From NCBI GenBank assembly GCA_044892525.1, contig CM097885.1, forward strand, positions 31,684,001 through 31,748,000: DNA of 64,000 nt, in the 5' to 3' direction. Under the pieces are notes generated by a model. That model saw only the letters and a program-made list of their open reading frames with translations. It made no database searches and was not told the origin of the DNA. The DNA comes from Schmidtea polychroa. Taxonomy: Eukaryota. The translations under genes were made by a program, and so were the position numbers. Shown one piece after another: positions 11,411-61,393 of the stretch. Position 1 is the stretch's first letter. Every line of letters starts with the position of its first letter.

Positions 11411-11727
11411 ATTAGCTTTGTAATTCAAGTTTAAATTAATGTGACCGAATAATATTTGATAGTGTGAGTCCATATAAAAGTTTTTATTTCATATTTTTTA
11501 TCCAGATTAAAACCTTTTCATATTAGATGATTACCCGTTTTAGCACTGGGGGAAATAATTTACGATTCAATTATTTTTCTTTTTCAATTTGTCTATTGAA
11601 AATGGTAACGTTATGGTAAATTCTAAATAATGAAATATTATCAAACAAATTATAAAAATGTATAAGATAAATATTATTATAAGAACTTTTATTTCTTCCA
11701 ATTTCACCACTGATTATTTTTTCCATT

Positions 11728-11848
11728 GAATTTATTAAAAAGAGAGTTTGAAGACCTTAAATCAGTAATATATCGATGTTTGTTGATATCAACAAACATC
11801 GATATATTACTGATTTATAGTCTTCAAACTCTCTTTTTAATAAATTCA
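11728..11848. repeat. ~120-bp near-perfect hairpin, member of a dispersed MITE-like family
   Basis: TGAATTTATTAAAAAGAGAGTTTGAAGAC...GATATC...GTCTTCAAACTCTCTTTTTAATAAATTCA. Relatives at ~1070-1195, 10390-10445, 27450-27580, 43750-43885, 50075-50255 and 53270-53385. Confidence 0.8.
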
Positions 11849-12924
11849 GTATAGAATAAAATTAAAATAAATGTTTTAATTACAATAACATTTATTGAAA
11901 TTTAAATTATTTTATAAAATTAACTAATGTAATTTATTCACAAAATAATTATTTAAACAAATCTATTTTTCAATTATTACAGTAAAAAAAATCTCAAATG
12001 TTTAAAAAGAACGATTTGGTGAAATTGAGTAAATTTTTCATAAAATTCATTAGAGAAAACTTGATTTTTAGGTGTCATTGAAATAATACTGTCATGTTGT
12101 AGATAAAAAATAAAATTTTGAATATTGGTTTAACCCAATAATAATAGATCACTGACAAATGCACAGATCTTTTAAATGTTAATGTAGAATGAAATTTTTT
12201 ATTAAATTATTTAAAATAAAATATTCGCAATTCATTTGTATTTTGTTTAAATTTCGATTTGAGTAATTGCCAGCATGAAATTTCAAAGAAAATAAATTTA
12301 ACTAAATCATTACTTTAAATAATCAAGAAAAATAAATTTGGAAATTTTTAAGAATACGGAAAATTTATTATTTATCACTGAATTTAAATTTAAATTGTCA
12401 TGAATAGTTATTGAAATTAAAGATAGCAATAATTAGAATATGTCTTTGACAGAACTCTTTCAATTATCCATTTATTATGCTTTTTAATGTCAGTAGCATA
12501 TAATGAGGACTCCAGGACACTTTCAAGGTCATGGAATATCAAGATCAAATATAGGTCAATTGAATCATTTATTTATTTATTTTTTTTTTTTTTAAATTAA
12601 CATTTTATTTAATTACTTCTTTTTAATTTTTTCTTTTTAATTTTTTCATTTTAATTTTATTAATTAATTATTTTATTATGTTTTATTTTAATTTATTACA
12701 TTTAATTAATTTATTAGTTTATTAATATTTTATTTTAATTACTTACGCTATTTAATTATTATTATTATTTTTTATTTATTTATTTATTTTTTTTTTTTTT
12801 AATTAATTAATTTATTTTTTATTTTTATTTAATTACTTCTATTTATTTATTTATTTATTTTATTTTTTTTATTTTTAATTTTCTTAATTAATTATTTTAT
12901 TATGTTTTTATTTTAGTATTATTT

Positions 12925-12963
<39 letters not shown>

Positions 12964-13285
12964 TTTTTTTTTTTTTTTTTAATTTTACATTTACATTATA
13001 TTCTAACAAGAGGTACATTATAACAATAATATTTCAATTTGAATAAAATATTAATTAGAAATTATTTAATTTATTATAAAATAAAACGCTGAGTTAATTT
13101 TAGATAAACCGGATATTAATTTTTCGGAAAAAATAAATAAAATAAACACAAAAATAATATTTCTTACTTGAAACTAATTATCTAAATTAATTGGACAAAT
13201 GAATAATTAAATGATAAAACACATTTTAATTAACTAAGTCAAACAATTCACAATATATATTTTATTATTCACATAAATTTAATTG

Positions 13286-16147
13286 TTAAAGTACTTGTTT
13301 CGATTTGCATTCATTTCTAGACATAGTAGTTGCAATATGCATTTGGCGAATCTTATAGTGACCGTAGGCATAACTTTCATTACAATTGTACCAATACCTT
13401 TTATCGTCCAAACATTGGAGAGCTCGTTTTTCTGTCATGAAAGTATACAACTGATGATTGACACTTCCTATTCTTTTTTGTGGGATGCTCACTGTTCCAC
13501 CATCAGTATACACTTTTTTATAGGCTTCATGTGTAAGATTAGAGTTTGTAAGTCTTATTCCTTTGGCTTTTAGAGTGTTTTTATCGCCTTGGAGTGAGTA
13601 GCACTTGGGTCGAAGAAACACCCATTCTTTATATTGATTTCCTTTATTCTCATCCTTAACTTTCCCGATTACAGAACAAATTTTATCAGAGAACAACGGA
13701 TCGGTCACTGGATAATTTGAAGTATCTAGTAGCCCATCTTCAATCATTTTTGGATATAGTTGTAAGCGTAAATCTACATTTTTACACTCTAAAAAGAAGG
13801 AATCTGTGTCACCAGCTACGATATTAATTTGACAATTGAATTTTTCTCTATAACTCTGTAGTTCTTTATATTGAAATTGGTACATGCGAAGTTTGGATAA
13901 ATCAAGTACGGTTTGTCCAATATACATTGGTCTATCTAAACACACAATTTCCTTATTGAGTATAACAGCAATGAGATCATCCGCAATCTTGATGCTACGA
14001 CGAAACATAGGATGACTACAATAAGTTATCAATCTTTTGCTTTTGCTGCATAATCTCAAATTTATACGTTTCTTCAAGTTTTCCACAGTTTTACCGTATA
14101 AACTGTTGTTCTTTAACTTATAATAATCTCGCTGAAACGAATCCGTACTAGCTGCTCTCATTTTGGTATTGTAATCAATATATCCTTTGAAAATAGCCAC
14201 TTGTTTGAATTCTACAGCACGATTAACTTTTGTGACTTTTGCGCCGTAACTCAACCACTCTGTCAAAACTCTACCATTAACTACATAGTTTTTCTTATGC
14301 TCATGAGTTAACAACAGCTTTTCAACTTTACTACCAGGTGGATAACAAAGCTCAGGAGCTATAGGTAAATCATCTAGCTTATCTTGTATACTATCAGGAA
14401 TGACGATATCAACCTCTAGAACATATCCACGATCTCCATCAAACTCATCCCCATTTGCACATCTTTCAACAATACCATTCATTTCAGTCTGATCATTTAT
14501 CCATCTAAATTCCCCAACAGGAAGTTTTTGCGACAGCGCCCATCCATATAAATTATTAACATCTAGGTATGACATTTGTGTTGATTCATCAGCTTCAACA
14601 TGATGTTTGTTGATAAATGTCATTCCACCACGAATACCAGCTTCAAATAAACGGTAAAGCTCTGGATCTTGAATAAGTTCTACCGGTTCAGGTAACTGTT
14701 TAATAGCTGATGCCCAACTTAATCCGGGTATGGAAACAAACGATAGAGCCTCAAGTCCATCTTCGTCAAATGTTTTTTCTCTGAAAGCTTCAAAAACATC
14801 GGCCAACAGAAAAACATCCAACTTGAGATATACGAGCATGTAATCTAGCAGTGTCTCACAGTTGTATTGTTGCCAGATTCGATTTGCATGTATATAATCT
14901 TCTTGACTAACTCCCTCCCAAATCGGTGGTAATTCTGTTATTGACTGTAAAACATCCATTGATGTAGCCATATCATAAGGAAAAATGGTTTTACAAGTCA
15001 TCATCTGTGATTCGAAAACATCTGAGGTCAGTGGAAGACATGGTAAATTTCTTGATAAATTTGCCAAGCTGCTATTTAAAAATTGTAAAGAATCAATGAA
15101 TCTCATTCTTCTGCCTTTCGATGTCGCTGTAAGTGTGAGAAACTTTTCTGTTGATTGAGGAATAACATTTAAATTCCAATCAGGGAATTTTCCAATTGCA
15201 TATTTTAATATATGATGAATGTCATATCCACGAAGATTATGAAATACAACAGGTAAAGACGGATTGATTCTTCTAGCCAAGTTGCAATCTTGACATGCTG
15301 CTCCGAGATATTGACCAGTAAAATGATCATGATCTCGAACAGGTATATTGATAATCTTTTTACAAAGGTAGCAATGAGTTTGATTCGTAAATTCTTCCTG
15401 CTGTTCCCAAGTGAGTTCCATCATTTCCTTTGATCCATTAATTTTATACCACGGATAAACTATGTCTGTAGCTATATCATCCAATGCTTGTATGAACTGA
15501 ATGATACAGTTTTCCCCAACAAATGTTTCATTTCGGATCGGACAACCTTGATGAAGAAGCACAAATTCAGATGCAATCGGCTCATGTTTTTGGAAGTGTT
15601 TGTCATCTAGAGGTAATATCGATTCAAAGTCCGCGTAGACAACAAACTGCTGTTTTATAGTTTTACTCCAGTCTTTAAATTCGATATATTTATTCTCTGG
15701 CATTGAGTATAGAGTCGTCCGCTCCACATTTTTCCTACAAAGACCTATATGTCTTTCAAAAGCAGGACGTTTTCGAAACCCATGAAGACATGTATGACAC
15801 CATTGTGATTGGATTCTGACTCCTTCTACTCTATCTCTGTAATTCAGCAGTCGATCGAGATTGGTTACAGCCAAAAAATGATAATTTAATTCTAAAATTT
15901 AGTTAATATTTTAATGATTAAAGGAAATATTACCTTCTTCAATCAATAAGAGATATATCTGAGATCCCGTCGAAGTACTTCTATATACCAAGTCAACGAA
16001 CGGATTCTTGAAAATATCATTAGTTTTTTGTTTAATTGGATCTTTATTATATTTGAGAACATTGATCGCTAGATTAGGATTCATTGCTTCAAATTGGCAA
16101 ATGTTAACCAACTTCATTGGAAACCAATCTGATTTCCATTTTAACTC

Positions 16148-16185
<38 letters not shown>

Positions 16186-17277
16186 GAATGATATAAATAT
16201 ATATTACCACTTAAATTATATTTCATTACTCTTTCTCTGTGGTGTTTTATGTCATCATAATGTAATACAGCCAGTATGCCATATAAAAAGCAGAATTGAT
16301 CATTATTTTGAACATTAACTAAAGCCTGACAGTTTTTCAGGTAATTTGGCGTTTTAATGTAACTTGAACCTAAGTAAATATCTTGATTTATATATATAAT
16401 AATGTAAATAAACTTACCAGATACATGTATTATGTCTGATAATTTAGTTAAAATCATAGTAACTTCTAATATTTTATGAATTCTCCACCCACTACTTTGT
16501 TGAGTGTATTTCTCCAACTTTTCTTTTAATTTTTCAATTCCATCATTAATAAATGAAGATGACATTGTAATTGCTTTATTCGACAAACACCATTTTTTAA
16601 TTTCACCATCCTCTTTGATAAACTCTGCACAAAGTCCAAATTGGATTTTTACTGTCCCCATTCGTTGAATATGATCTTCTATTTCTTTGATGAGACAATC
16701 TGGAACAACAATGTCAGGAGAATTAATTGCAGATACATCGCTTGTCAATTCAACACGAGAACCGTTTAAGTCAGACTCCCGACGTGGACACAATTGTATG
16801 TTAGAGTCTCCATTTCCGTAAAATATTGACTTTCGTTTTGTGGTGCCAGAGTTTTGTCTAACTATATTTATAATTAATATTAAACAACTTAAATAACATA
16901 ACTTGTAACATATTCTTTAATCTCCTTAGGATCGTATGATGTATTCATTTTCGATTGTACTATAAAAAATTAATAATTGTTAATAGTAGAAAGAGTATTA
17001 CTTTTAGTGATCATCCTGCTCTTCGTTTCTTCGAATCTTCTAAGATGGTGTCCGTGTTGTCGTACAAACATTAACCACCTACCTGGTGTTATAATGAGAC
17101 ATTCCGGACATATGTAACCCGATAAGGTAGAGTCATTTATCTTGAAATATGATGATGTAACTGATTTACAGTTCTCCACATCTTCATGACTTTCGGCAAT
17201 ACAAAATTTATATAAACTGCATCCGTTCACTAAAAAATAATCATTAATATTAGATAGAGAATAAAAATTTATTCACT
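13286..17277 (-). CDS. polB: Mirror copy of the spliced pPolB gene. Predicted exons 17277, 17229-17002, 16959-16903, 16861-16418, 16369-16208, 16146-15934, 15891-13286
   Basis: ORF translations (862, 99, 229, 86 aa) are identical to those of the right arm, with mirrored splice sites. Confidence 0.9.
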
Positions 17278-17327
17278 TATATAAGTTAAATTAAAAGTTT
17301 AAATGACAAACATTTGAAAAGTTACTG

Positions 17328-17437
17328 CTTATATATTACACATGATTAAATTCTGACCAATCAAAATCAAGGAAGGGGTAGGAAAAATAAATATATTCTG
17401 ACCAATCAAAATCAAGGAAGGGGTAGGAAAAATAAAT
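17328..17437 (-). promoter_or_regulatory. Mirror copy of the putative polB promoter
   Basis: Two copies of TTCTGACCAATCAAAATCAAGGAAGGGGTAGGAAAAATAAAT, plus CTTATATA. Confidence 0.6.
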
Positions 17438-18549
17438 GCATTACATTGCAGTATTTTAAAACTTAAATTTTAAAACACATTTTGACGCTAAAGTTGACTT
17501 ATTTAACATTTTCATAATAATTTAATAAAAATAATGTGTTGAACTCACAAAGTAATATCATTTTTTTTTTTTCATCAAATTGCAAAACAGTAATAACGTT
17601 TTCATAAAATTGTAACAAAGTAATAACATATTTCAGATAAATTTTCAACAGTTGTAAAATATTTATCAAATTGTAACTAAAATAATAAAAATATTGCAAC
17701 AAAGTAATAAAATAATGATGTTAATTGGGACAAATCAATACATTATTTCGAAGACGGACAACAAATTAAAAAAGAATATTGTAATAAATTGTGAAGTCTT
17801 TCAGTAAATTACAACAAAGTAATAACATATTTCGGAAATATTTCACCAGATGTAAAATATTTAAGCAAATTGTTATAAGATTATAAAAATATTGCAACAA
17901 AGTAATAAAATAATACAACATTTTAAACTCTAGATCAATCCATTTTATAGAAAATTAAATTTTATCTCTATAATATATGAATAAATATACAAGGAAATTA
18001 CGTTAACGTATAATAAAACATGTGTGTATTACACACAAAACAAGATACATAATTTCTAATCAATCCATTTTATAGAAAATTAAATTTTATCTATATATTA
18101 TATGAATAAAATCCTAAGAAAATTACGTTAACCGCGCGAAAAATACAAATTTATCGTAAAAACATGTGTGTATTACACACAACATACGAGACATAATTTT
18201 TAATCAAGCTATTTTATAGAAAATTAAATTTTATCTATATATTAAATGAATAAAAATCCAAGAAAATAACGTTAAGCGCGCGAAAAAATACAAATTTATT
18301 GTAAAAACATGTGTGCATTACACACAAAGCACCAAACTGAAATTGTAATTGCGCCGTGTTGTAGAGAATTAAATTCTGCCTATACATTGTTACACTTAAA
18401 TCTCGATCAGACCTGTGAAAAGAGACATAAAAGAGAAAGAACAGTAGAGTAGTATGATTGGTCCCCGCCAGACCAGGTCCCCTCCAGACCACATATACCC
18501 CCTCCCCCCCCCCCTCCCCCCCGGGAAAAATTTTTTTTTTTTTTAAAAT

Positions 18550-20950
18550 AAAAGGTCAAGGTCATTTTTTAATTTAATTTTTTGTTTTAATTAAGTGATC
18601 ATTTAATTTTTCAAGGTCATATTTTAAAATTTAAATGTACAGAGTTCCCGCCAACAAATATTATTAAACGATACCTCATCTTAAAGCTCGGTCTAAGACC
18701 TTTCGATTGATCCATAGAAGGTGTCATCATCATTAATATTAACAAAGTTATTAACATTTAACCAAAAATCATTTTCAAGGTCATATAATTATTAGTGGTC
18801 CAGCGGTGACCTGGTTTTCGTTTGCCCCAAAGTTATCGTTCCCATTATCCGAATTTATTAATCGATAGCTTATTTTGAAGCGTAGTCTAAGACCTTTCAA
18901 TTGAGCCATAGAAGGTATCATCATCATTAACATCGGCAAAGTTATTAAAGTTTTACCGAGACCATTTTTCAAGGTCATTTATTTTTCAAAATATTATTTT
19001 CAAGGTCAAGGTCAAGGTCATTTATTTTTTCAAGGTCATTTATTTTTTCAAGGTCATTTATTTTTTCAAGGTCATTTATTTTTTCAAGGTCATTTATTTT
19101 TTCAAGGTCATATTTTAAAATTTAAATGTACAGAGTTCCCGACAACGATAATTATTCAACGATAGCTCATTTTAAAGCCCAATGCAAGACCTTTCGATTG
19201 ATTCATAGAAGGTATCATCATCATTATTATTGACAAAGTTATTATCAATTAACCAAAAATCATTTTCAAGGTCATATAATTATTAGTGGTCCAGCGGTGA
19301 CCTGGTTTTCGTTTGCCCCAAAGTTATCGTTCCCATTATCCGAATTTATTAATCGATAGCTTAATTTGAAGCTTAGTGCAAGATCTATCTACTGATGTAT
19401 AAATATTATCATCATCATTATTATTGGCAAAATTATTAACGTTTTCCCGAGACCATTTTCAAGGTCATTTATTTTTCAAAATATTATTTCCAAGGTCATT
19501 TATTTTTTCAAGGTCATTTATTATTTCCAAGGTCATTTATTTTTTCAAGGTCATTTTTTTTTTTCAAGGTCATTTTTTAATTTAATTTTTTGTTTTAATT
19601 AAGTGATCATTTAATTTTTCAAGGTCATATTTTAAAATTTAAATGTACAGAGTTCCCGCCAACAAATATTATTAAACGATACCTCATTTTAAAGCTCGGT
19701 CTAAGACCTTTCGATTGATCCATAGAAGGTATCATCATCATTAATATTAACAAAGTTATTAACATTTAACCAAAAATCATTTTCAAGGTCATATAATTAT
19801 TAGTGGTCCAGCGGTGACCTGGTTTTCGTTTGCCCCAAAGTTATCGTTCCCATTATCCGAATTTATTATTTGATAGCTTATTTTGAAGCTTAGTGCAAGA
19901 TCTATCTACTGATGTATAAATATTATCATCATCATTATTATTGGCAAAATTATTAACGTTTTCCCGAGACCATTTTCAAGGTCATTTATTTTTCAAAATA
20001 TTATTATTTCCAAGGTCATTTATTTTTTCAAGGTCGCGTGACTCATCAAGGTCATTCCCAAGGTCATTTTTTTTTTTCAAGGTCATTTTTTAATTTAATT
20101 TTTTGTTTTAATTAAGTGATCATTTAATTTTTCAAGGTCATATTTTAAAATTTAAATGTACAGAGTTCCCGCCAACAAATATTATTAAACGATACCTCAT
20201 TTTAAAGCTCGGTCTAAGACCTTTCGATTGATCCATAGAAGGTATCATCATCATTAATATTAACAAAGTTATTAACATTTAACCAAAAATCATTTTCAAG
20301 GTCATATAATTATTAGTGGTCCAGCGGTGACCTGGTTTTCGTTTGCCCCAAAGTTATCGTTCCCATTATCCGAATTTATTATTTGATAGCTTATTTTGAA
20401 GCTTAGTGCAAGATCTATCTACTGATGTATAAATATTATCATCATCATTATTATTGGCAAAATTATTAACGTTTTCCCGAGACCATTTTCAAGGTCATTT
20501 ATTTTTCAAAATATTATTATTTCCAAGGTCATTTATTTTTTCAAGGTCGCGTGACTCATCAAGGTCATTCCCAAGGTCATTTTTTTTTTCAAGGTCATTT
20601 TTTAATTTAATTTTTTGTTTTAATTAAGTGATCATTTAATTTTTCAAGGTCATATTTTAAAATTTAAATGTACAGAGTTCCCGCCAACAAATATTATTAA
20701 ACGATACCTCATTTTAAAGCTCGGTCTAAGACCTTTCGATTGATCCATGGAAGGTATCATCATCATTAATATTAACAAAGTTATTAACATTTAACCAAAA
20801 ATCATTTTCAAGGTCATATAATTATTAGTGGTCCAGCGGTGACCTGGTTTTCGTTTGCCCCAAAGTTATCGTTCCCATTATCCGAATTTATTATTGGATA
20901 GCTTATTTTGAAGCTTAGTGCAAGATCTATCTACTGATGTATAAATATTA
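18550..20950 (+). repeat. Central non-palindromic spacer: about five tandem ~490-517-bp units rich in CAAGGTCA
   Basis: Marker GTCCAGCGGTGACCTGG recurs at ~18797, 19289, 19806, 20319 and 20831. Roughly 35 CAAGGTCA motifs by eye, all on the + strand, some in 18-bp sub-repeats (TTTATTTTTTCAAGGTCA). Confidence 0.92.
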
Positions 20951-21154
20951 TTATTAACATTATTTTACACACGGGGGGGGGAGAGGGTATATGTGGCCTG
21001 GCGGTGACCTGGTCTGGATGGCCCCAATCATACTACTCTACTGTTCTTTCTCTTTTATGTCTCTTTTCACAGGTCTGATCGAGATTTAAGTGTAACAATG
21101 TATAGGCAGAATTTAATTCTCTACAACACGGCGCAATTACAATTTCAGTTTGGT

Positions 21155-21550
21155 GCTTTGTGTGTAATGCACACATGTTTTTACAATAAATTTGTATTTT
21201 TTCGCGCGCTTAACGTTATTTTCTTGGATTTTTATTCATTTAATATATAGATAAAATTTAATTTTCTATAAAATAGCTTGATTAAAAATTATGTCTCGTA
21301 TGTTGTGTGTAATACACACATGTTTTTACGATAAATTTGTATTTTTCGCGCGGTTAACGTAATTTTCTTAGGATTTTATTCATATAATATATAGATAAAA
21401 TTTAATTTTCTATAAAATGGATTGATTAGAAATTATGTATCTTGTTTTGTGTGTAATACACACATGTTTTATTATACGTTAACGTAATTTCCTTGTATAT
21501 TTATTCATATATTATAGAGATAAAATTTAATTTTCTATAAAATGGATTGA
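21155..21550. repeat. Three degenerate ~120-bp tandem repeats in the inner arm (mirror copy ~17935-18330)
   Basis: TGTGTGTAATRCACACATGTTTT, TTAACGT and ATAAAATTTAATTTTCTATAAAAT each recur three times. Confidence 0.8.
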
Positions 21551-22047
21551 TCTAGAGTTTAAAATGTTGTATTATTTTATTACTTTGTTGCAATATTTTT
21601 ATAATCTTATAACAATTTGCTTAAATATTTTACATCTGGTGAAATATTTCCGAAATATGTTATTACTTTGTTGTAATTTACTGAAAGACTTCACAATTTA
21701 TTACAATATTCTTTTTTAATTTGTTGTCCGTCTTCGAAATAATGTATTGATTTGTCCCAATTAACATCATTATTTTATTACTTTGTTGCAATATTTTTAT
21801 TATTTTAGTTACAATTTGATAAATATTTTACAACTGTTGAAAATTTATCTGAAATATGTTATTACTTTGTTACAATTTTATGAAAACGTTATTACTGTTT
21901 TGCAATTTGATGAAAAAAAAAAAATGATATTACTTTGTGAGTTCAACACATTATTTTTATTAAATTATTATGAAAATGTTAAATAAGTCAACTTTAGCGT
22001 CAAAATGTGTTTTAAAATTTAAGTTTTAAAATACTGCAATGTAATGC

Positions 22048-22157
22048 ATTTATTTTTCCTACCCCTTCCTTGATTTTGATTGGTCAGAATATATTTATTT
22101 TTCCTACCCCTTCCTTGATTTTGATTGGTCAGAATTTAATCATGTGTAATATATAAG
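22048..22157 (+). promoter_or_regulatory. Putative Pol II promoter of polB: two direct repeats (45-bp period) each with an inverted CCAAT box, followed by a TATA-like box
   Basis: ATTTATTTTTCCTACCCCTTCCTTGATTTTGATTGGTCAGAAT at 22048 and 22093. TATATAAG at 22150-22157, ~50 nt before the first splice donor. Confidence 0.6.
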
Positions 22158-22207
22158 CAGTAACTTTTCAAATGTTTGTCATTTAAACTTTTAATTTAAC
22201 TTATATA

Positions 22208-23299
22208 AGTGAATAAATTTTTATTCTCTATCTAATATTAATGATTATTTTTTAGTGAACGGATGCAGTTTATATAAATTTTGTATTGCCGAAAGTCATG
22301 AAGATGTGGAGAACTGTAAATCAGTTACATCATCATATTTCAAGATAAATGACTCTACCTTATCGGGTTACATATGTCCGGAATGTCTCATTATAACACC
22401 AGGTAGGTGGTTAATGTTTGTACGACAACACGGACACCATCTTAGAAGATTCGAAGAAACGAAGAGCAGGATGATCACTAAAAGTAATACTCTTTCTACT
22501 ATTAACAATTATTAATTTTTTATAGTACAATCGAAAATGAATACATCATACGATCCTAAGGAGATTAAAGAATATGTTACAAGTTATGTTATTTAAGTTG
22601 TTTAATATTAATTATAAATATAGTTAGACAAAACTCTGGCACCACAAAACGAAAGTCAATATTTTACGGAAATGGAGACTCTAACATACAATTGTGTCCA
22701 CGTCGGGAGTCTGACTTAAACGGTTCTCGTGTTGAATTGACAAGCGATGTATCTGCAATTAATTCTCCTGACATTGTTGTTCCAGATTGTCTCATCAAAG
22801 AAATAGAAGATCATATTCAACGAATGGGGACAGTAAAAATCCAATTTGGACTTTGTGCAGAGTTTATCAAAGAGGATGGTGAAATTAAAAAATGGTGTTT
22901 GTCGAATAAAGCAATTACAATGTCATCTTCATTTATTAATGATGGAATTGAAAAATTAAAAGAAAAGTTGGAGAAATACACTCAACAAAGTAGTGGGTGG
23001 AGAATTCATAAAATATTAGAAGTTACTATGATTTTAACTAAATTATCAGACATAATACATGTATCTGGTAAGTTTATTTACATTATTATATATATAAATC
23101 AAGATATTTACTTAGGTTCAAGTTACATTAAAACGCCAAATTACCTGAAAAACTGTCAGGCTTTAGTTAATGTTCAAAATAATGATCAATTCTGCTTTTT
23201 ATATGGCATACTGGCTGTATTACATTATGATGACATAAAACACCACAGAGAAAGAGTAATGAAATATAATTTAAGTGGTAATATATATTTATATCATTC

Positions 23300-23337
<38 letters not shown>

Positions 23338-26199
23338 GAGTTAAAATGGAAATCAGATTGGTTTCCAATGAAGTTGGTTAACATTTGCCAATTTGAAGCA
23401 ATGAATCCTAATCTAGCGATCAATGTTCTCAAATATAATAAAGATCCAATTAAACAAAAAACTAATGATATTTTCAAGAATCCGTTCGTTGACTTGGTAT
23501 ATAGAAGTACTTCGACGGGATCTCAGATATATCTCTTATTGATTGAAGAAGGTAATATTTCCTTTAATCATTAAAATATTAACTAAATTTTAGAATTAAA
23601 TTATCATTTTTTGGCTGTAACCAATCTCGATCGACTGCTGAATTACAGAGATAGAGTAGAAGGAGTCAGAATCCAATCACAATGGTGTCATACATGTCTT
23701 CATGGGTTTCGAAAACGTCCTGCTTTTGAAAGACATATAGGTCTTTGTAGGAAAAATGTGGAGCGGACGACTCTATACTCAATGCCAGAGAATAAATATA
23801 TCGAATTTAAAGACTGGAGTAAAACTATAAAACAGCAGTTTGTTGTCTACGCGGACTTTGAATCGATATTACCTCTAGATGACAAACACTTCCAAAAACA
23901 TGAGCCGATTGCATCTGAATTTGTGCTTCTTCATCAAGGTTGTCCGATCCGAAATGAAACATTTGTTGGGGAAAACTGTATCATTCAGTTCATACAAGCA
24001 TTGGATGATATAGCTACAGACATAGTTTATCCGTGGTATAAAATTAATGGATCAAAGGAAATGATGGAACTCACTTGGGAACAGCAGGAAGAATTTACGA
24101 ATCAAACTCATTGCTACCTTTGTAAAAAGATTATCAATATACCTGTTCGAGATCATGATCATTTTACTGGTCAATATCTCGGAGCAGCATGTCAAGATTG
24201 CAACTTGGCTAGAAGAATCAATCCGTCTTTACCTGTTGTATTTCATAATCTTCGTGGATATGACATTCATCATATATTAAAATATGCAATTGGAAAATTC
24301 CCTGATTGGAATTTAAATGTTATTCCTCAATCAACAGAAAAGTTTCTCACACTTACAGCGACATCGAAAGGCAGAAGAATGAGATTCATTGATTCTTTAC
24401 AATTTTTAAATAGCAGCTTGGCAAATTTATCAAGAAATTTACCATGTCTTCCACTGACCTCAGATGTTTTCGAATCACAGATGATGACTTGTAAAACCAT
24501 TTTTCCTTATGATATGGCTACATCAATGGATGTTTTACAGTCAATAACAGAATTACCACCGATTTGGGAGGGAGTTAGTCAAGAAGATTATATACATGCA
24601 AATCGAATCTGGCAACAATACAACTGTGAGACACTGCTAGATTACATGCTCGTATATCTCAAGTTGGATGTTTTTCTGTTGGCCGATGTTTTTGAAGCTT
24701 TCAGAGAAAAAACATTTGACGAAGATGGACTTGAGGCTCTATCGTTTGTTTCCATACCCGGATTAAGTTGGGCATCAGCTATTAAACAGTTACCTGAACC
24801 GGTAGAACTTATTCAAGATCCAGAGCTTTACCGTTTATTTGAAGCTGGTATTCGTGGTGGAATGACATTTATCAACAAACATCATGTTGAAGCTGATGAA
24901 TCAACACAAATGTCATACCTAGATGTTAATAATTTATATGGATGGGCGCTGTCGCAAAAACTTCCTGTTGGGGAATTTAGATGGATAAATGATCAGACTG
25001 AAATGAATGGTATTGTTGAAAGATGTGCAAATGGGGATGAGTTTGATGGAGATCGTGGATATGTTCTAGAGGTTGATATCGTCATTCCTGATAGTATACA
25101 AGATAAGCTAGATGATTTACCTATAGCTCCTGAGCTTTGTTATCCACCTGGTAGTAAAGTTGAAAAGCTGTTGTTAACTCATGAGCATAAGAAAAACTAT
25201 GTAGTTAATGGTAGAGTTTTGACAGAGTGGTTGAGTTACGGCGCAAAAGTCACAAAAGTTAATCGTGCTGTAGAATTCAAACAAGTGGCTATTTTCAAAG
25301 GATATATTGATTACAATACCAAAATGAGAGCAGCTAGTACGGATTCGTTTCAGCGAGATTATTATAAGTTAAAGAACAACAGTTTATACGGTAAAACTGT
25401 GGAAAACTTGAAGAAACGTATAAATTTGAGATTATGCAGCAAAAGCAAAAGATTGATAACTTATTGTAGTCATCCTATGTTTCGTCGTAGCATCAAGATT
25501 GCGGATGATCTCATTGCTGTTATACTCAATAAGGAAATTGTGTGTTTAGATAGACCAATGTATATTGGACAAACCGTACTTGATTTATCCAAACTTCGCA
25601 TGTACCAATTTCAATATAAAGAACTACAGAGTTATAGAGAAAAATTCAATTGTCAAATTAATATCGTAGCTGGTGACACAGATTCCTTCTTTTTAGAGTG
25701 TAAAAATGTAGATTTACGCTTACAACTATATCCAAAAATGATTGAAGATGGGCTACTAGATACTTCAAATTATCCAGTGACCGATCCGTTGTTCTCTGAT
25801 AAAATTTGTTCTGTAATCGGGAAAGTTAAGGATGAGAATAAAGGAAATCAATATAAAGAATGGGTGTTTCTTCGACCCAAGTGCTACTCACTCCAAGGCG
25901 ATAAAAACACTCTAAAAGCCAAAGGAATAAGACTTACAAACTCTAATCTTACACATGAAGCCTATAAAAAAGTGTATACTGATGGTGGAACAGTGAGCAT
26001 CCCACAAAAAAGAATAGGAAGTGTCAATCATCAGTTGTATACTTTCATGACAGAAAAACGAGCTCTCCAATGTTTGGACGATAAAAGGTATTGGTACAAT
26101 TGTAATGAAAGTTATGCCTACGGTCACTATAAGATTCGCCAAATGCATATTGCAACTACTATGTCTAGAAATGAATGCAAATCGAAACAAGTACTTTAA
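22208..26199 (+). CDS. polB: Protein-primed family B DNA polymerase polyprotein (terminal-protein/OTU-like N-terminus, Zn finger, 3'-5' exonuclease with endonuclease VII insert, polymerase). Predicted exons 22208, 22256-22483, 22526-22582, 22624-23067, 23116-23277, 23339-23551, 23594-26199; 1236 aa
   Basis: ExoI YADFES, ExoII HNLRGYD, ExoIII YLKLDV, motif A YLDVNNLYG, motif B KLKNNSLYGK, motif C GDTDS, plus LRPKCYS, KAKGI and DDKRY. Six GT-AG introns of 41-61 nt join the four ORF-track pieces into one 3711-nt frame. The 5' exon model is manual. Confidence 0.9.
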
Positions 26200-26521
26200 C
26201 AATTAAATTTATGTGAATAATAAAATATATATTGTGAATTGTTTGACTTAGTTAATTAAAATGTGTTTTATCATTTAATTATTCATTTGTCCAATTAATT
26301 TAGATAATTAGTTTCAAGTAAGAAATATTATTTTTGTGTTTATTTTATTTATTTTTTCCGAAAAATTAATATCCGGTTTATCTAAAATTAACTCAGCGTT
26401 TTATTTTATAATAAATTAAATAATTTCTAATTAATATTTTATTCAAATTGAAATATTATTGTTATAATGTACCTCTTGTTAGAATATAATGTAAATGTAA
26501 AATTAAAAAAAAAAAAAAAAA

Positions 26522-26560
<39 letters not shown>

Positions 26561-29500
26561 AAATAATACTAAAATAAAAACATAATAAAATAATTAATTA
26601 AGAAAATTAAAAATAAAAAAAATAAAATAAATAAATAAATAAATAGAAGTAATTAAATAAAAATAAAAAATAAATTAATTAATTAAAAAAAAAAAAATAA
26701 ATAAATAAATAAAAAATAATAATAATAATTAAATAGCGTAAGTAATTAAAATAAAATATTAATAAACTAATAAATTAATTAAATGTAATAAATTAAAATA
26801 AAACATAATAAAATAATTAATTAATAAAATTAAAATGAAAAAATTAAAAAGAAAAAATTAAAAAGAAGTAATTAAATAAAATGTTAATTTAAAAAAAAAA
26901 AAATAAATAAATAAATGATTCAATTGACCTATATTTGATCTTGATATTCCATGACCTTGAAAGTGTCCTGGAGTCCTCATTATATGCTACTAATGTCTAT
27001 GATGAATTTCTGTAAATTTATTGATTTTCTGTAATGAAATTTTATTTGTTTGAATTTGTTTTATAATTAAAATGTTTTACATGTGTACAAAAAATTTGCA
27101 AATATTGTATTTTGTGATTATTATTCGTATTTATAAAGAATTAGTAATTGAAGCTTTATTATGTATGAAACAAAAGTTTTATTAGAACTATAAATATTTT
27201 GAAGGAAATTTATAAGTGCTTTTCATTTTAATTATAACAAATTGATCATTAAAATCTTTTATCTTTTACACAATAATCTATTATCTTTTGCAATTTTTAT
27301 TATCATCACTTATTTATGGAAATTATAACAATATTTTGTTTTTTATTTAACATAATGTGATTTTGATAAAGGCTATACCGAAAATTCATGTTAAATATGA
27401 CGTAAATATATAAAGAAATAATAAGAAATTAAATTAAAACTAATAAATAATTATAAGAACTTTTTTCAGTTTTCACCTCTGATTTCTTTTCAATTGACAT
27501 TGTATTAAAAAGATTTGACTTAAATGCTAAAGAAATCGATATCTTTACCAATTCATAGACAAATATTTTTAATAAATTCTATAAATAATAATTTTATATA
27601 TTAAAAAGGTTTTGTGTACTACTGAAAATGACGATAGAATATTCGAGTTTTCTTTTTCTATCCTAATGTATATTTTGTTGTATTTTCAAAGAGCTCTACA
27701 AAATCAAGAGAGGTTGAAAAATGGAAAAATTTTAAATATTGTGTTTGATGAATTTTTCCATTTTCAAAAGTCAGTTAAGCTTCTTAATTCATATTAATTG
27801 CTTTACTTGAAGCAACACTTGATTGTCACATAAACTGACCAGACTTTTCAAGAGTTCTTCAAGTGCAACACAGTTAAAAACCGTTGACAAACCTTTATCA
27901 AAATGCCTTCCACTAAATGATTTCAGTTTTTTACTTTTTGCAATTTCCTTCAGATAACTACAGACCTTCCTGAAACTAGCTAATTTACAACTTTATATAG
28001 TAATTTATTAGTTTTTTATGAGTGATTTTCCCATTGAATTCTGTAATAAATAAAGAATTTATTTTGTCTATGAAGTAGAAGACCTTTTGAAGTTCAATTA
28101 AGTTTAGTTATACGAAGATATAAATTTTTATTTATCTTTATATACTCCATGTTATGATTCGTGTCAAATATTGTCTTCAGGTCAAGACTTATTATTTTTC
28201 CAAGAATTTATAACATAATCTTTGTAACACTACTAAATTGGAACCTTATTCTAGGTAGAATAAGTCATGCATAATTATTATATTTCAACTCCATTATCTC
28301 TAGTATGACTTATAACACTAATATTCAGCTCTAGAAAGTCAAGTACTTGTCAAACAATTCTTTTACTTTAAGGATTAAGGATAAAGTAAAGAGTCTTCCG
28401 TTTTAAATTGAGAAAACCTCATAAGATTGAAATTTAAGAGTCATTTACAAGAAATAGCACCTGCAATAGATTAACTCTCAGAAACCCAGATCCTCAAAAG
28501 TTCCGTGAAACAACTGAGAGACACTTAGAGGTTATAAAGGTTATAAATCATTTAAGAATATATTTGAAATTTTAATCCCGAATTTTGTTTAGCACGTAAA
28601 AAGCTAAATATTCAAAATAAAATAACAATGCCAAGTTTTCACCGAGATTTTGCACAGTAACATTTGAAAAATTTAATTTACATGCAAAAAAATAATAAAT
28701 ATTATGGGTATAAGCAAAACCTTTTTATCATTTTGTTAATTGTAGATTTCATTTTTTTGTATTTAAAACTTAAAACATTTTTATTTTATATATTTTAAAA
28801 ATTAAAAGTCAGAGAGGTCGGAAACCACTGATCTACAGGGTATTTCCAAATTGTTAATAGTCGGCTGATGCTCCAGTAGAACTTGATGTGTTATAAATAT
28901 ACATAAGCTTTTTTTTGTTATATGCATTAATTTTATGGCGTCAATTATAATTTTAACAAATTTATAAAAAATATATATTGTTTGGATATAATGTTAAAAT
29001 CAATCTATGCAACATGTCAAGAAAATGTTATTGTAAGATTGAACCAAAATTATTACCTGACTTCAGATTGTTGAAATATAATCCCTTGTGTGTTAACGTG
29101 TTTGCTAGCGCTAAAGCTTTGATAATAAGGTTGCAATGTTTGAAGCATGAATGTTTAATTACTAACATAAGAAATTGAATCATTCTATTTGTCGATATTT
29201 GTTTGATTGATGATTGTTTAAAACAAAATGTTCTTTCATTTTATATCAATTTAAAAAAATATATAATTCGCCAAGCATTACCAAATTTATGGAGGAAATC
29301 GAGAATTATGGTAAATTCTATTTAATCATTTTCAATGTTAATATTTCATTTATAGGTGCTTATGTCGCTATTATTTTGGAAAGATTGAAGTGTCATTATC
29401 CACAAATGGCTGAAATTCTCAATGGTAAACCATCAACAATGATTCCCGATCTGGCTTACAAGGAGACAATAATTTGGATTTTGGATATTATCCAGCAATT

Positions 29501-48297: not shown

Positions 48298-48961
48298 CTA
48301 TAGATGTATCTTATTCCCAAGAAATAATGACGATTATTTATAATTTTGACGAATCTTTTCCATTAGTTAAATTGTTATAGATATTAAACCAACACTTGAA
48401 TACTATAATGGTCAATCCTGAGGTTGACTATCGTGTCTGTGTGCACGTTTTTTTGAAGTTGTTGATATTTATGTGTGGGCACACAGACGCGGACAATAGT
48501 TTTGTTTGAAAGGTGCCTTTTGTCGCGAATTTTTGGAAATAAAGTTTTGAAGGTTTTTCTTAATTTATTTTTAAAATGGCTATAATGGCTCGAAGATATG
48601 GTGATCGAACAACTACCTTTTCACTGGATGGTAGTTTATGTCAAGGTTAATATGCAATGGACGCTTGTGTCATGCTGACAAAATTTCATCTGTTGGGTTG
48701 CGCACACAGATGCGAGGCAAAAAAAGTTTTGTTTAAAAAGTTTTTTTTGTAACGAATTTTTGAATAGAATAAAGATTTTTTGAAAACTTTTTTTTTCATT
48801 ATAAAATGGTTTAACTTAAAGAATGGATATGAATTCATAAGTGTTGACAAAGTAGCTCTAAAAATATTTTTGTTCATTTTAAATCTATCGCATTCAGCAA
48901 TGCAATCTCAATAACTGATCGAGAAGTTCTTTTCAAAATTCCCAAACCTGACAGAGGATCC

Positions 48962-54998: not shown

Positions 54999-55924
54999 GT
55001 AAATGTGGTTTAAAATAAGAATTTTTTGTTTTATTTTAAAAAGATAGAAATAAATGGTATTAGTATAAATATTATTATTACCTAATTAAAATTTCATTCA
55101 AATAATAATACATAATTTACATATGTCATCAACTATAAGCAGAAAATGTGTATGTTGTTCGATGTCTGCACACATACTTGTTAATTGCCTCCAATCAGAA
55201 CTCGAGAACAAATGCATAATTTATCCAGTTCTATTCATATCAACCAAAATGATAGATAAACATAGAATTTTCAATTTATTTACGCTGATTTTTAAAACAA
55301 TCACAAAAAATGTCACGTGAGTCTGATGTATCATAATCTGTTTATTGCAAATTCAATTTAAAAACGGTATATTATTATGTGCCTCTATATGTACGTTTCG
55401 AGTATTGTCAATGACGGTAATGTTTGATCGAGATATTTTTATCCTGTTCTATACATGTAATATGTCAGATTGTTTTATTGAATTATTAGAAAATATAAAA
55501 GATGAAAAGAATCATAAACTTTTAAGTTTTGATTTAGTTGTCTTTTATGACATTTTGAGTGATTGCAAACACTATTCTTTTAAGGGTTTGTAAGGATTTT
55601 TAAGATACATCATAAGAATATAATTTATGATTGTATAAACCCACATATAGACCGATACCATGAATAAATAGTTGCAAATTTTATTAAAATCGATTTTATA
55701 TTAATAATTTTTAATATCACTAATATAATATTTTTAAATAATTTTAATAATAATTTCAATAATAATTCCAAGTTTTCTTTAATTCTTTAACATTCGTTTT
55801 AAAAGTTTTCTAGTTATCGAGTATTAAATTATATCTCATTCAAACAAAAGAGTAGTATGTAGTAAGGACTCCAGCGCACTTTCAAGGTCATGGAATATCA
55901 AGATCAAATATAGACCAATCGAAT

Positions 55925-57050
55925 CATTTATTTTTTAAATTAACATTTTATTTAATTACTTCTTTTTAATTTTTCTTTTTAATTTTATTAATTAATTATT
56001 TTATGATGTTATATTTTAATTACTTACTTTATTTAATTTTTAATTTATTACATTTAATTAATTTATTAGTTTATTAATATTTTATTTTAATTACTTACGC
56101 TTTATTATTATTTATTTTTATTTTTATTTATTTTATTTTATTTTATTTTTTTTTTAATTAATTAATTTATTTTTTAATTTAAATTTTATTTAATTACTTC
56201 TATTTTTTTTTTCTTTTTAATTTTATTAATTAATTATTTTATGATGTTATATTGTAATTACTTACTTTAGTTAATTTTTAATTTATTACATTTAATTAAT
56301 TTATTAGTTTATTAATATTTTATTTTAATTACTTACGCTTTATTATTAATTATTTTTATTTATTATTTTTTTATTTTTTTTATTTTTTTTATTTTTTTTA
56401 ATTAATTTATTTTTTTTTTAATTTAAATTTTATTTAATTACTTCTATTTTTTTTTCTTTTTAATTTTATTAATTAATTATTTTATGATGTTATATTGTAA
56501 TTACTTACTTTAGTTAATTTTTAATTTATTACATTTAATTAATTTATTAGTTTATTAATATTTTATTTTAATTACTTACGCTTTATTATTATTTATTTTT
56601 ATTTTTATTTATTTATTTATTTTTTTTTAATTAATTAATTTATTTTTTAATTTAAATTTTATTTAATTACTTTTATTTATTTTATTTATTTATTTTTTTT
56701 TCTTTTTAATTTTATTAATTAATTATTTTATGATGTTATATTTTAATTACTTACTTTAGTTAATTTTTAATTTATTACATTTAATTAATTTATTAGTTTA
56801 TTAATATTTTATTTTAAAAACTTACGCTTTATTATTATTTATTTTTATTTATTTATTTATTTATTTTTTTTTTTAATTAATTTATTTATTTTTTAATTTA
56901 AATTTTATTTAATTACTTCTATTTATTTATTTTTTTTATTTATTTATTTTTTTTTTCTTTAATTTTCTTAATTAATTATTTTATTATGTTTTTATTTTAG
57001 TATTATTTTATTTATTTATTATTATTATTATTATTATTTTTTTTTTTTAA
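55925..57050. repeat. Subterminal extremely AT-rich ~240-bp tandem array of copy 2 (mirror ~60230-61300)
   Basis: Marker ACTTACGCTTT at ~56092, 56331, 56573 and 56820. AAAGCGTAAG occurs four times in the right arm. Copy 1 has one such marker per arm. Confidence 0.8.
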
Positions 57051-57385
57051 TTTTACATTTACATTATATTCTAACAAGAGGTAAATTATAACAATAATAT
57101 TTCAATTTGAATAAAATTTTAATTAGTAATTATTCAATTTGAATAAAATTTTAATTAGAAATTATTTAATTTATTATAAAATAAAACGCTGAGTTAATTT
57201 TGGATAAACCGGATATTAATTTTTCGGAAAAAATAAATAAAATAAACACAAAAATAATATTTCTTACTTGAAACTAATTATCTAAATTAATTGGACAAAT
57301 GAATAATTAAATGATAAAACACATTTTAATTAAGTAAGTCAAATAATTCACAATATATATTTTATTATTCACATAAATTTAATTG

Positions 57386-59470
57386 TTAAAGTGCTTGTTT
57401 CGATTTGCATTCATTTGTAGACGGAGCAGTTGCAATATGCATTTGACGAATCTTATAGTGACCGTAGGCATAGCTTTCATTAGAATTGAACCAATATCTT
57501 TTATCATCCAAACATTGGAGAGCTCGTTTTTCTGTAATGAAAGTATACAACTGACGATTAACACTTTCTATTCTCTTTTGTTGGATGCTCACTGTTCTAC
57601 CATCAGTATACACTTTTTTATAAGCTTCATGGGTGATATTAGAATTTGTAAGACTTATTCCTTTGGCTTTTAGAGTGTTTTTATCGCTTTGGAGTGAGTA
57701 GCATTTGGGTCGAAGAAACACCCATTCTTTATATTGATTTCCTTTATTCTCATCCTTAACTTTCCCGATTACCGAACAGATTTTATCAGAGAACAACGGA
57801 TCGGTCACTGGATAATTTGAAGTATCTAGGAGCCCATCTTCAATCATTTTTGGATATAGTTGTAAGCGTAAATCAACATTTTTACACTCTAAAAAGAAGG
57901 AATCTGTGTCACCGGCTACGATATTAATTTGACAATTGAATTCTTCTCTATAACTCTGTAGTTCTTTATATTGAAACTGGTACATGCGAAGTTTGGATAA
58001 ATCAAGTACGGTTTGTCCAATATACATTGGTCTATCTAAACACACAATTTCCTTATTGAGTATAACAGCAATGAGATCATCCGCAATCTTAATGCTACGA
58101 CGAAACATAGGATGACTACAATAAGTTATCAATCTTTTGCTTTTGTTGCATAATCTCAAATTTATACGTTTCTTCAAGTTTTCCACAGTTTTACCGTATA
58201 AACTGTTGTTCTTTAACTTATAATAATCTCGCTGAAACGAATCCGTACTAGCTGCTCTCATTTTGGTATTGTAATCAATATAGCCTTTGAAAATAGCTAC
58301 TTGCTTGAATTCTACAGCACGATTAACTTTTGTGACTTTTGCGCCGTAACTCAACCACTCTGTCAAAATTCTACCATTAACTACATAGTTTTTCTTAGGC
58401 TCATGAGTTAACAACAGCTTTTCAACTTTACTACCAGGTGGATAACAAAGCTCAGGAGCTATAGGTAAATCATCTAGCTTATCTTGTATACTATCAGGAA
58501 TGACGATGTCAACCTCTAGAACATATCCACGATCTCCATCAAACTCATCCCCATTTGTACATCTTTCAACAATACCATTCATTTCAGTCTGATCATTTAT
58601 CCATCTAAATTCACCAACAGGAAGATTTTGCGACAGCGCCCATCCATATAAATTATTAACATCTAGGTATGACATTTGTGTTGATTCATCAGCTTCAACA
58701 TGATGTTTGTTGATAAATGTCATTCCACCACGAATAACAGCTTCGAATAAACGGTAAAGCTCTGGATCTTGAATAAGTTCTACCGGTTCAGGTAACTGTT
58801 TAATAGCTGATGCCCAACTTAATCCGGGTATGGAAACAAACGATAAAGCCTCAAGTCCATCTTCGTCAAATGTTTTTTTCTCTGAAAGCTTCAAAAACAT
58901 CGGCCAACAGAAAAACATCCAGCTTGAGATATACTAGCATGTAATCTAGCAGTGTCTCACAGTTGTATTGTTGCCAGATTCGATTTGCATGTATATAATC
59001 TTCTTCACTAACTCCCTCCCAAATCAGTGGTAATTCTGTTATTGACTGTAAAACATCCATTGATGTAGCCATATCATAAGGAAAAATGGTTTTACAAGTC
59101 ATCATCTGTGATTCGAAAACATCTGAGGTCAGTGGAAGACATGGTAAATTTTTTGATAAATTTGCCAAGCTGCTATTTAAAAATTGTAAAGAATCAATGA
59201 ATCTAATTCTTCTGCCTTTCGATGTCGCTGTAAGTGTGAGAAACTTTTCTGTTGATTGAGGAATAACATTTAAATTCCAATCGGGGAATTTTCCAATTGC
59301 ATATTTTAATATATGATGAATGTCATATCCACGAAGATTGTGAAATACAACAGGTAAAGACGGATTGATTCTTCTAGCCAAGTTGCAATCTTGACATGCT
59401 GCTCCGAGATATTGACCAGTAAAATGATCATGATCTCGAACAGGTATATTGATAATCTTTTTACAAAGGT
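57386..59470 (-). pseudogene. polB: 5'-truncated, frameshifted pPolB (left arm of copy 2)
   Basis: 171-aa and 510-aa ORFs are near-identical to copy 1. One extra T in the T-run at 58873-58879 shifts the frame. The gene is truncated at the start of the EndoVII Zn motif. Confidence 0.92.
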
Positions 59471-59891
59471 GACTGATCCATTGTTCTCAGATAAAATTTG
59501 TTCGGTAATCGGGAAAGTTAAGGATGAGAATAAAGGAAATCAATATAAAGAATGGGTGTTTCTTCGACCCAAATGCTACTCACTCCAAGGCGATAAAAAC
59601 ACTCTAAAAGCCAAAGGAATAAGTCTTACAAATTCTAATATCACCCATGAAGCTTATAAAAAAGTGTATACTGATGGTAGAACAGTGAGCATCCAACAAA
59701 AGAGAATAGAAAGTGTTAATCGTCAGTTGTATACTTTCATTACAGAAAAACGAGCTCTCCAATGTTTGGATGATAAAAGATATTGGTTCAATTCTAATGA
59801 AAGCTATGCCTACGGTCACTATAAGATTCGTCAAATGCATATTGCAACTGCTCCGTCTACAAATGAATGCAAATCGAAACAAGCACTTTAA
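59469..59891 (+). pseudogene. polB: C-terminal pPolB fragment (right arm of copy 2)
   Basis: VTDPLFSDKICSVIGKVKDE...KRALQCLDDKRY...KQAL, beginning abruptly at the deletion junction. Confidence 0.92.
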
Positions 59892-61393
59892 CAATTAAAT
59901 TTATGTGAATAATAAAATATATATTGTGAATTATTTGACTTACTTAATTAAAATGTGTTTTATCATTTAATTATTCATTTGTCCAATTAATTTAGATAAT
60001 TAGTTTCAAGTAAGAAATATTATTTTTGTGTTTATTTTATTTATTTTTTCCGAAAAATTAATATCCGGTTTATCCAAAATTAACTCAGCGTTTTATTTTA
60101 TAATAAATTAAATAATTTCTAATTAAAATTTTATTCAAATTGAATAATTACTAATTAAAATTTTATTCAAATTGAAATATTATTGTTATAATTTACCTCT
60201 TGTTAGAATATAATGTAAATGTAAAATTAAAAAAAAAAAATAATAATAATAATAATAATAAATAAATAAAATAATACTAAAATAAAAACATAATAAAATA
60301 ATTAATTAAGAAAATTAAAGAAAAAAAAAATAAATAAATAAAAAAAATAAATAAATAGAAGTAATTAAATAAAATTTAAATTAAAAAATAAATAAATTAA
60401 TTAAAAAAAAAAATAAATAAATAAATAAATAAAAATAAATAATAATAAAGCGTAAGTTTTTAAAATAAAATATTAATAAACTAATAAATTAATTAAATGT
60501 AATAAATTAAAAATTAACTAAAGTAAGTAATTAAAATATAACATCATAAAATAATTAATTAATAAAATTAAAAAGAAAAAAAAAATAAATAAATAAAATA
60601 AATAAAAGTAATTAAATAAAATTTAAATTAAAAAATAAATTAATTAATTAAAAAAAAATAAATAAATAAATAAATAAAAATAAATAATAATAAAGCGTAA
60701 GTAATTAAAATAAAATATTAATAAACTAATAAATTAATTAAATGTAATAAATTAAAAATTAACTAAAGTAAGTAATTACAATATAACATCATAAAATAAT
60801 TAATTAATAAAATTAAAAAGAAAAAAAAATAGAAGTAATTAAATAAAATTTAAATTAAAAAAAAAATTAATTAATTAAAAAAAATAAAAAAATAATAAAT
60901 AAAAATAAAAATAAATAATAATAAAGCGTAAGTAATTAAAATAAAATATTAATAAACTAATAAATTAATTAAATCTAATAAATTAAAAATTAACTAAAGT
61001 AAGTAATTACAATATAACATCATAAAATAATTAATTAATAAAATTTAAATTAAAAAATAAATTAATTAAATAAAAAAAAATAAAATAAAATAAAATAAAT
61101 AAAAATAAAAATAAATAATAATAAAGCGTAAGTAATTAAAATAAAATATTAATAAACTAATAAATTAATTAAATGTAATAAATTAAAAATTAAATAAAGT
61201 AAGTAATTAAAATATAACATCATAAAATAATTAATTAATAAAATTAAAAAGAAAAATTAAAAAGAAGTAATTAAATAAAATGTTAATTTAAAAAATAAAT
61301 GATTCGATTGGTCTATATTTGATTTTGATATTCCATGACCTTGAAAGTGCGCTGGAGTCCTTACTACATACTACTCAAAAGGAATTATATATA

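Follow-up and report, generated by a model that had tools for sequence, protein, structure and literature searches.

The 64,000-bp stretch of DNA analysed here (the window) contained a 14,500-bp palindromic, polymerase-only Polinton derivative (E1) whose central spacer carried exactly 35 copies of CAAGGTCA, every one on the plus strand, and the same motif was found at a fixed position inside both ends of E1 and both ends of a smaller sister element (E2). A total of 39 copies of CAAGGTCA were present in the window compared to 0.74 expected (mean of 100 dinucleotide shuffles, the largest shuffle giving 3). The 35 spacer copies lay between 18557 and 20816 while the remaining four were at the element ends, each as TTTCAAGGTCA, and no copy was found in the 41,180 bp of flanking DNA outside the elements. 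Counted from the end, TCAAGGTCA started at base 32 in 4 of 4 element ends. A sequence-only reading of the window had reported about 35 same-orientation central motifs and a copy about 30 bp inside all four ends, and both statements held. The array is tentatively read as a docking array for a host receptor of the NR5A/ERR type which may serve as an enhancer for both polB promoters, with the end copy as an origin helper; we rate this reading somewhat below an even chance.

By sequence, the motif matched the extended half-site of nuclear receptors, as previously proposed. TCAAGGTCA equals a published ERR element (PMC4978380), matches the Ftz-F1 site and fits the SF-1 (NR5A) consensus YCAAGGYCR (PMC3861103). 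With the preceding base included, the spacer copies of CAAGGTCA read TCAAGGTCA in 29 cases and CCAAGGTCA in six, and two further copies of TCAAGGTCG were present; these 37 spacer sites and the four terminal sites agreed with TCAAGGTCA / YCAAGGYCR. Single-mismatch variants on the plus strand of the spacer also fell within YCAAGGYCR in 8 of 8 cases (about three independent changes), a fit that arises partly from counting near-matches only since heavily decayed copies within the clusters (TAAGTGATCA, TCAAAATAT) and the second terminal copy break the consensus.

The terminal copies were embedded in a conserved block. At the left end of E1 this block (12518..12554, plus strand) covered bases 27-63 (37 bp) and contained TCAAGGTCA at bases 32-40 together with the weaker TCAAGATCA. 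Comparison of the left ends of E1 and E2 showed that 9 of the first 76 bases differed, none of them in bases 27-63 (permutation p = 0.015). The second, weaker terminal copy broke the consensus (TCAAGATCA, and TCAAAATCA at one end), and the one change at the right end of E2 was located in this weaker copy. A motif search placed the other terminal sites at 26952..26960 (minus strand, TCAAGGTCA) for the right end of E1 and at 55882-55890 (plus strand) and 61336-61344 (minus strand) for E2. In adenovirus, NF-I binds origin bases 23-36 (PMC8160523), and the elements resemble this origin in having a host-factor-like site in a conserved block at a fixed distance, some tens of bases, from a protein-primed end. 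They differ in that the factor here would be a nuclear receptor and in the 35-fold internal repetition of the site. Folding of the outer ends into hairpins was no better than that of shuffles; for the inner ends described below, the left was marginal (5 of 200 shuffles) and the right no better than shuffles.

E1 (12492..26991) ended in AGTAGC...GCTACT and was flanked by the 6-bp target-site duplication AATGTC (12486..12491 and 26992-26997, plus strand). Its left arm (12492..18512, plus strand) and right arm (20973..26991, minus strand) were mirror images of each other, differing by two 1-bp indels in T-runs and eight substitutions in 18462-18501. The arms, previously taken as identical, were so nearly throughout but not in the innermost ~50 bp next to the spacer, where all eight substitutions were located. 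Both arms also contained 144-bp repeats (17890..18432, plus strand, mirrored at 21053-21595), of which the innermost copy was degenerate and reached the inner AGTAG end. Intact vertebrate Polintons/Mavericks are described with a 6-bp duplication, (AGT)2-type ends, terminal repeats of 46-1,447 bp, a length of 12.7-24.6 kb and intronless genes (PMC8097293; general background on Polintons is found in PMC6431247, PMC10558129 and PMC11296320). Judged against the part of that description consulted, E1 and E2 showed the 6-bp duplication (AATGTC and CAAAAG, respectively) and the (AGT)2-type end, which was exact in E2 (AGTAGT) and a variant in E1 (AGTAGC), and a protein-primed polB was identified (PF03175, E = 1e-29); the length of E1 was also within the published range. 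E1 was unlike these Polintons in its 6.0-kb arms, in carrying polB in duplicate within the arms with three GT-AG intervals, and in a centre that consisted of a motif array enclosed by a further pair of AGTAGT ends. No integrase, ATPase, capsid or protease frame was found in E1, and its ORFs of at least 120 aa were polB frames only. By its sequence, E1 is a non-autonomous Polinton derivative since relatives at two of 37 related loci (L009 and L011), with polB 52-57% identical to that of E1, carried integrase, A32-type ATPase and TBP-like genes downstream of polB. The TBP-like protein (PF00352) of these autonomous relatives was located at L009:11333-11779 and L011:10321-10764, and a ubiquitin-conjugating-enzyme-like frame was also seen at L009:13480-13974.

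The two protein-primed polB copies pointed outwards, the left at 13286..17272 (minus strand, 5' limit approximate) and its mirror at 22213-26199 (plus strand). GT-AG intervals of 48, 61 and 42 bp were found on the minus strand at 16370-16417, 16147-16207 and 15892-15933 (mirrored within 23068-23593), each after the first base of a codon, and an upstream exon at 16973-17272 resembled the N-termini of homologs. The E1 polB is probably split by introns since its homologs are continuous where the three intervals lie. Each polB gene was preceded by a conserved promoter that the sequence-only reading did not include (17350..17437, minus strand, mirrored at 22048-22135), composed of a pair of 45-bp repeats that each contained an inverted CCAAT box and were followed by a TATA-like box. 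This layout was similar in the relatives L020 and L022. In the relative L002 (61% polB identity), TTTCAAGGTCAT, a 12-base match, was located just upstream of the polB TATA-like box; this single case, noticed post hoc, compares with a shuffle mean of 0.05. Overall, the motif was not enriched among the 37 related loci, in which no element ends were identified (four copies of CAAGGTCA observed, 3.5 expected), and a copy near the start of L037 was at chance level. At L003:1-185, a C-tract and three ~21-bp repeats lay directly 5' of a 5'-truncated polB, an arrangement that resembled another non-autonomous derivative.

The spacer (18513..20972, plus strand, 2,460 bp) was made up of about 4.8 units of ~510 bp, giving five similar units. 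Each unit consisted of a T-rich motif cluster followed by a sub-unit A of 164 bp (five copies, for example 19628..19791, plus strand) and a sub-unit B of 193 bp (four full copies and one partial, for example 19792..19984, plus strand), and each sub-unit carried the motif at its end. This middle level of repetition was absent from the sequence-only reading. T-rich clusters were identified on the plus strand at 18970..19110 (9 sites), 19460-19627 (7 sites), 19977-20140 (6 sites) and 20490-20652 (6 sites), in addition to a cluster of two sites at the array start (18557-18619); the other five of the 35 sites were at the ends of the A sub-units. Spacing between sites was not constant, with values of 6, 12, 18, 19, 31, 34, 36 and 55 bp. 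Of the periods described earlier, those of 18-19 bp and ~510 bp were real, while the 6-bp period was minor and limited to one triplet (19001-19020) and one pair at the array start. Units 3 and 4 were identical (513 of 513 bases), and units 1 and 2 differed from them by 26 and 39 substitutions, respectively. The newest units also contained TGACTCA between motif copies (20039..20045 and 20552-20558, plus strand), which we take to be an AP-1-type site. Sub-units A and B were about 67-73% alike. Their comparison showed a perfect 14-bp block at the motif despite 67% overall likeness; this block could reflect patchy conversion since a second perfect 14-bp block sits in an ATC run.

A coding role for the spacer was rejected, as its longest stop-free frame was 86 codons. 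A structured RNA gene array was also rejected: the Rfam search gave one sub-threshold match (E = 0.52), the tRNA search found none, and folding compared to shuffles gave z = -0.50 for sub-unit A on the plus strand, -0.79 for A on the minus strand and -1.18 for B on the plus strand, the three cases folded. In virus collections, a 27-base array pattern had no matches. The end pattern had 16 matches, at mid-contig positions, and the 18-bp doublet had 38, of which 25 had a Gly-His-Gln-type frame without stops across the translated part, the others being similar low-complexity repeats. One array unit had no match when compared with phages, and a single-protein scan of viral contigs returned nothing.

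Search of public data showed that 19 of the 23 listed runs (8 studies) contained part of the spacer, and four listed runs, all from one study that may have supplied the DNA itself, contained half or more. No RNA run was listed as containing it, which speaks neither for nor against expression. Contigs of four of the 23 listed runs (X1, X5, X10 and X16) were compared with positions 20500-21330, to which 16,696, 2,980, 118 and 17 contigs fitted, respectively. X16 (organism B) was then left out, as 16 of its 17 contigs fitted in part only, and the small-share runs X11-X15 and X17-X19 were also outside the comparison. A 146-base contig of X1, which had 17 other letters and 8 gaps, bridged array, inner end and arm, which shows that the arm-spacer junction exists in a diverged copy; none of the contigs listed spanned the whole tested stretch. 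Among the variant letters listed for sub-unit A5, 11 of 15 equalled unit 2 of the window, so members of the family have unit variants in common. A 6-bp deletion that kept both neighbouring motifs was found in 9 (X1), 4 (X5) and 2 (X10) contigs, i.e. in three of the four runs. At the loose ends listed, motif-broken forms occurred in 24 X1 and 3 X10 contigs and intact forms in 15 X5 contigs. None of the 22 variant places listed on the spacer side fell in a motif, where about two were expected; this difference was not significant, and 73 of 113 places lay outside those listed. Contig depth, which is not equal to copy number, dropped at the inner end in X5, and there was no cover at that point in X10, although a gap in cover carries no weight as evidence. 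Since the contigs show many variants and an arm junction in a diverged copy, the array, as judged from their sequences, is part of a very large and diverse family rather than a one-off satellite. The possibility, raised with the sequence-only reading, of an unrelated satellite absent elsewhere was thus not borne out.

For the docking-array reading, the following mechanism is proposed. The array would be a multi-site platform for a sequence-specific protein, in all likelihood a monomeric nuclear receptor of the host, which would also bind 32 bp from each end. The single end site would aid the start of protein-primed replication, like NFI at adenovirus ends, while the T-rich clusters of six to nine sites, set apart by the two nucleosome-sized sub-units, would keep the chromatin open. 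The central clusters would act as an enhancer common to the two outward-facing CCAAT/TATA polB promoters, which lie 1.1-1.2 kb from the array, and polymerase output would thereby be tied to receptor-expressing cells. A further effect of the spacer may be that the 12-kb palindrome stays imperfect. For moving, the array is probably helpful rather than strictly required, and the end motif could just as well be recognised by a protein that the element encodes. A broader proposal, in which a host NR5A/ERR-type pioneer receptor is a replication and transcription helper of a Polinton lineage, with one site at each end as an origin helper, and a captured nested cassette amplified to 35 sites became the central enhancer or tether of a two-polymerase palindrome, is unlikely to hold in full.

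In mouse, Nr5a2 and Esrrb bind the motif in SINE B1 and on nucleosomes, where entry-exit sites are preferred (bioRxiv 10.1101/2022.05.17.492379, in the portion consulted). SINE B1 is comparable to E1 as a mobile element with TCAAGG(C/T)CA that receptors bind on nucleosomes; it differs in that each small retroelement contributes a single site that serves host genes, whereas in E1 a dense array would serve the DNA element itself. Lone sites spaced at 164 and 193 bp would be in keeping with the preference for nucleosome entry-exit sites. Lengths such as 164 and 193 bp are often found in satellite repeats. In the planarian Schmidtea, Polintons are described as targeted by piRNAs and as released from silencing when cells differentiate (PMC8532177, in the portion consulted), so a tissue-specific factor would be plausible if the host is similar.

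The spacer was found to be bounded by inward-facing Polinton-type AGTAGT ends, which had been missed in the sequence-only reading. AGTAGTATG, the 9 bases with which E2 begins, occurred at 18448 (plus strand) and 21037 (minus strand), facing inward and followed by a C-tract, so that an inverted pair of ends starting AGTAGT encloses the array. The left inner end (18443..18522, plus strand) pointed into the spacer and contained AGTAGAGTAGTATG, an inverted CCAAT box, a GC-rich 16-bp repeat and the C-tract, and the right inner end (20973..21042, minus strand) was its imperfect mirror. The GC-rich stretch is presumably GC-box-like, and the left inner end might serve as a promoter-type module in addition to being an end. 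The other strand of its C-tract fitted a G-quadruplex pattern (18455-18522). The first ~45 bp of sub-unit B, read on the minus strand, resembled the right inner end (30 of 41 columns, a score reached by 0 of 500 shuffles). These features suggest, with moderate confidence, that a gene-less Polinton-type cassette is nested here as the spacer and that DNA near its ends underwent tandem copying. Any target duplication of the spacer's own would be unreadable because its flanks are mirror images. The chances seem about evenly balanced that the array entered as a gene-less AGTAGT-ended cassette, grew by tandem copying of a unit of ~165-195 bp and gave rise to the palindrome by exchange between inverted ends. 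If the nesting is right, exchange between the inverted ends of the cassette on two molecules would account for the palindrome with two polB genes.

The same inner ends leave room for the array as a passenger. On this reading, slippage and unequal exchange amplified the end-proximal signals of a nested gene-less cassette, the central motifs are inactive now, and E1 retains the cassette only since a long palindrome needs a unique loop. This is possible, if rather unlikely. The inward-facing AGTAGTATG with its C-tract, the likeness of sub-unit B to the right inner end, the identity of units 3 and 4, the decayed motif copies and the lack of an array in E2 are all as such a passenger would have them, and 4 of 16 listed X1 and X5 pieces followed the arm to 21047-21054 and then continued into 50-325 letters of other sequence, which fits a module boundary. 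However, these pieces could stem from other copies of the 144-bp repeat, and no loose end or joint was found at 21037-21045 among the 24 of 594 loose ends and 15 of 36 joints listed. The overall likeness between inner and outer ends was also weak (reached by 2-24 of 500 shuffles, with background windows higher), and the motif was retained at many spacings and at the ends of both sub-units.

E2 (55851..61375) was a 5,525-bp sister palindrome with ends AGTAGT...ACTACT and the target duplication CAAAAG. It was without the central part, as both promoter and array were missing, and its junction was near 59470, with 2 bases of microhomology. Its polB had a frameshift near 58875, and both arms contained expanded ~240-bp AT-rich repeats. 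Comparison of its arms showed four synonymous differences in the 10 junction-side codons and one non-synonymous difference in the other 131, and since the differences concentrate at the junction, homogenisation of the arms followed the formation of the junction, except at the inner edge. The innermost 30-50 bp were the divergent part of otherwise near-identical arms in both elements (57779-57803 vs 59469-59500 in E2, 18462-18501 vs 20984-21023 in E1), which hints at arm-to-arm copying that stops before the loop. The arms of E2 could have been evened out during further rounds of copying, in which the array was dispensable, or by conversion in the chromosome. Since chromosomal conversion could give the same result, E2 shows only weakly that the array is dispensable.

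Another reading, which we consider improbable, takes the motifs as iterons or a packaging signal for a Polinton-encoded reader supplied in trans (polymerase/terminal protein, integrase or packaging factor), so that the array improves competition for the element protein and the match to receptor sites is due to chance. The fixed position of the motif inside the conserved terminal block, with weaker repeats behind it, would suit an element protein, and autonomous relatives encode candidate readers (integrase, A32-type ATPase and TBP-like protein). In addition, the inner ends carried CCAG(G/A)(T/C)CA, a repeat related to but different from the motif, as expected if the end signal is family-specific. 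Against chance, the motif is exactly the optimal ERR/Ftz-F1 9-mer and its near-variants fit YCAAGGYCR. The stuffer or packaging role proposed in the sequence-only reading proved weak because size filling would be unnecessary: the arms alone measure 12.0 kb, and the array-less E2 of 5.5 kb has its own target duplication. The proposed flipping of the spacer is sound but without consequence: inversion between the identical arms would return the same element and is thus silent, and flipping as a switch was rejected by symmetry.

It is also conceivable, though very doubtful, that a receptor does bind but the array acts as a sink or tether, titrating a repressing receptor as copies rise or hitching excised DNA to chromatin. 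Parallels are the family of repeats of EBV and receptor titration at the SV40 late promoter. The sequence evidence for a sink or tether is the same as for the docking array, and an enhancer would need fewer than 35 sites, the promoters already having the CCAAT and TATA boxes common to L020 and L022; the location of the array between two divergent promoters and the AP-1-type site in the newest units nevertheless suit an enhancer better. Finally, an unrelated satellite in this copy or an assembly fold-back artefact is highly improbable: 6-kb arms without substitution outside the innermost 50 bp, two identical 513-bp units and the lack of a listed contig spanning the tested stretch would fit it, but E1 and E2 each have direct 6-bp duplications with different outer flanks, eight substitutions lie at the inner arm edge, array and element ends have the motif in common, and the diverged X1 contig bridges array, inner end and arm.

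If the broader proposal of a receptor helper and a captured cassette is true, a candidate host factor for Polinton replication is named, and palindromic Polintons would have arisen when a nested element underwent exchange between its ends. A 9-bp candidate site with a fixed terminal position and 35 internal repeats would bear on the question of the host cells in which these elements become active. Should no receptor bind, what is left is the repeat-filled centre of a palindromic Polinton derivative. One site at the origin and in a tandem enhancer array is known from EBV oriP (family of repeats and dyad) and baculovirus hr, where viral proteins recognise the sites and the genomes are circular; no sequence kinship is claimed. 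In the C. elegans genome, Polinton end repeats have rearranged eri-6/7 and are proposed to drive inversions (bioRxiv 10.1101/2024.01.15.575659). These remnants are similar to E1 in having ends as inversion substrates and polB with a terminal repeat but no integrase; they differ in that their 744-bp repeats act on host genes, and the portion of that report consulted describes no palindromic two-polB unit or motif array. A literature search covering titles and abstract openings, with few subscription papers, found no description of a receptor-motif array or of a palindromic polymerase-only Polinton. The portions of the literature searched likewise named no host factor for Polinton replication or activation, and a search for COUP-TF with adenovirus packaging repeats had no match.

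Other features were also identified in the window. An RT-RNase H frame at 29684-30346 was a degenerate piece of an LTR-retrotransposon, and further degenerate pieces of this kind, with RT- and integrase-like frames (recognised by eye), were located at 61391-64000, adjoining E2. A 65-bp direct repeat was present beside E2 at 61391 and 63936. An actin-like frame fragment was recognised by eye at 48848-49222. Finally, a small dispersed repeat family was found at 11654-11860, 43746-43901 and 50069-50265, with copies 80-91% alike and in both orientations.
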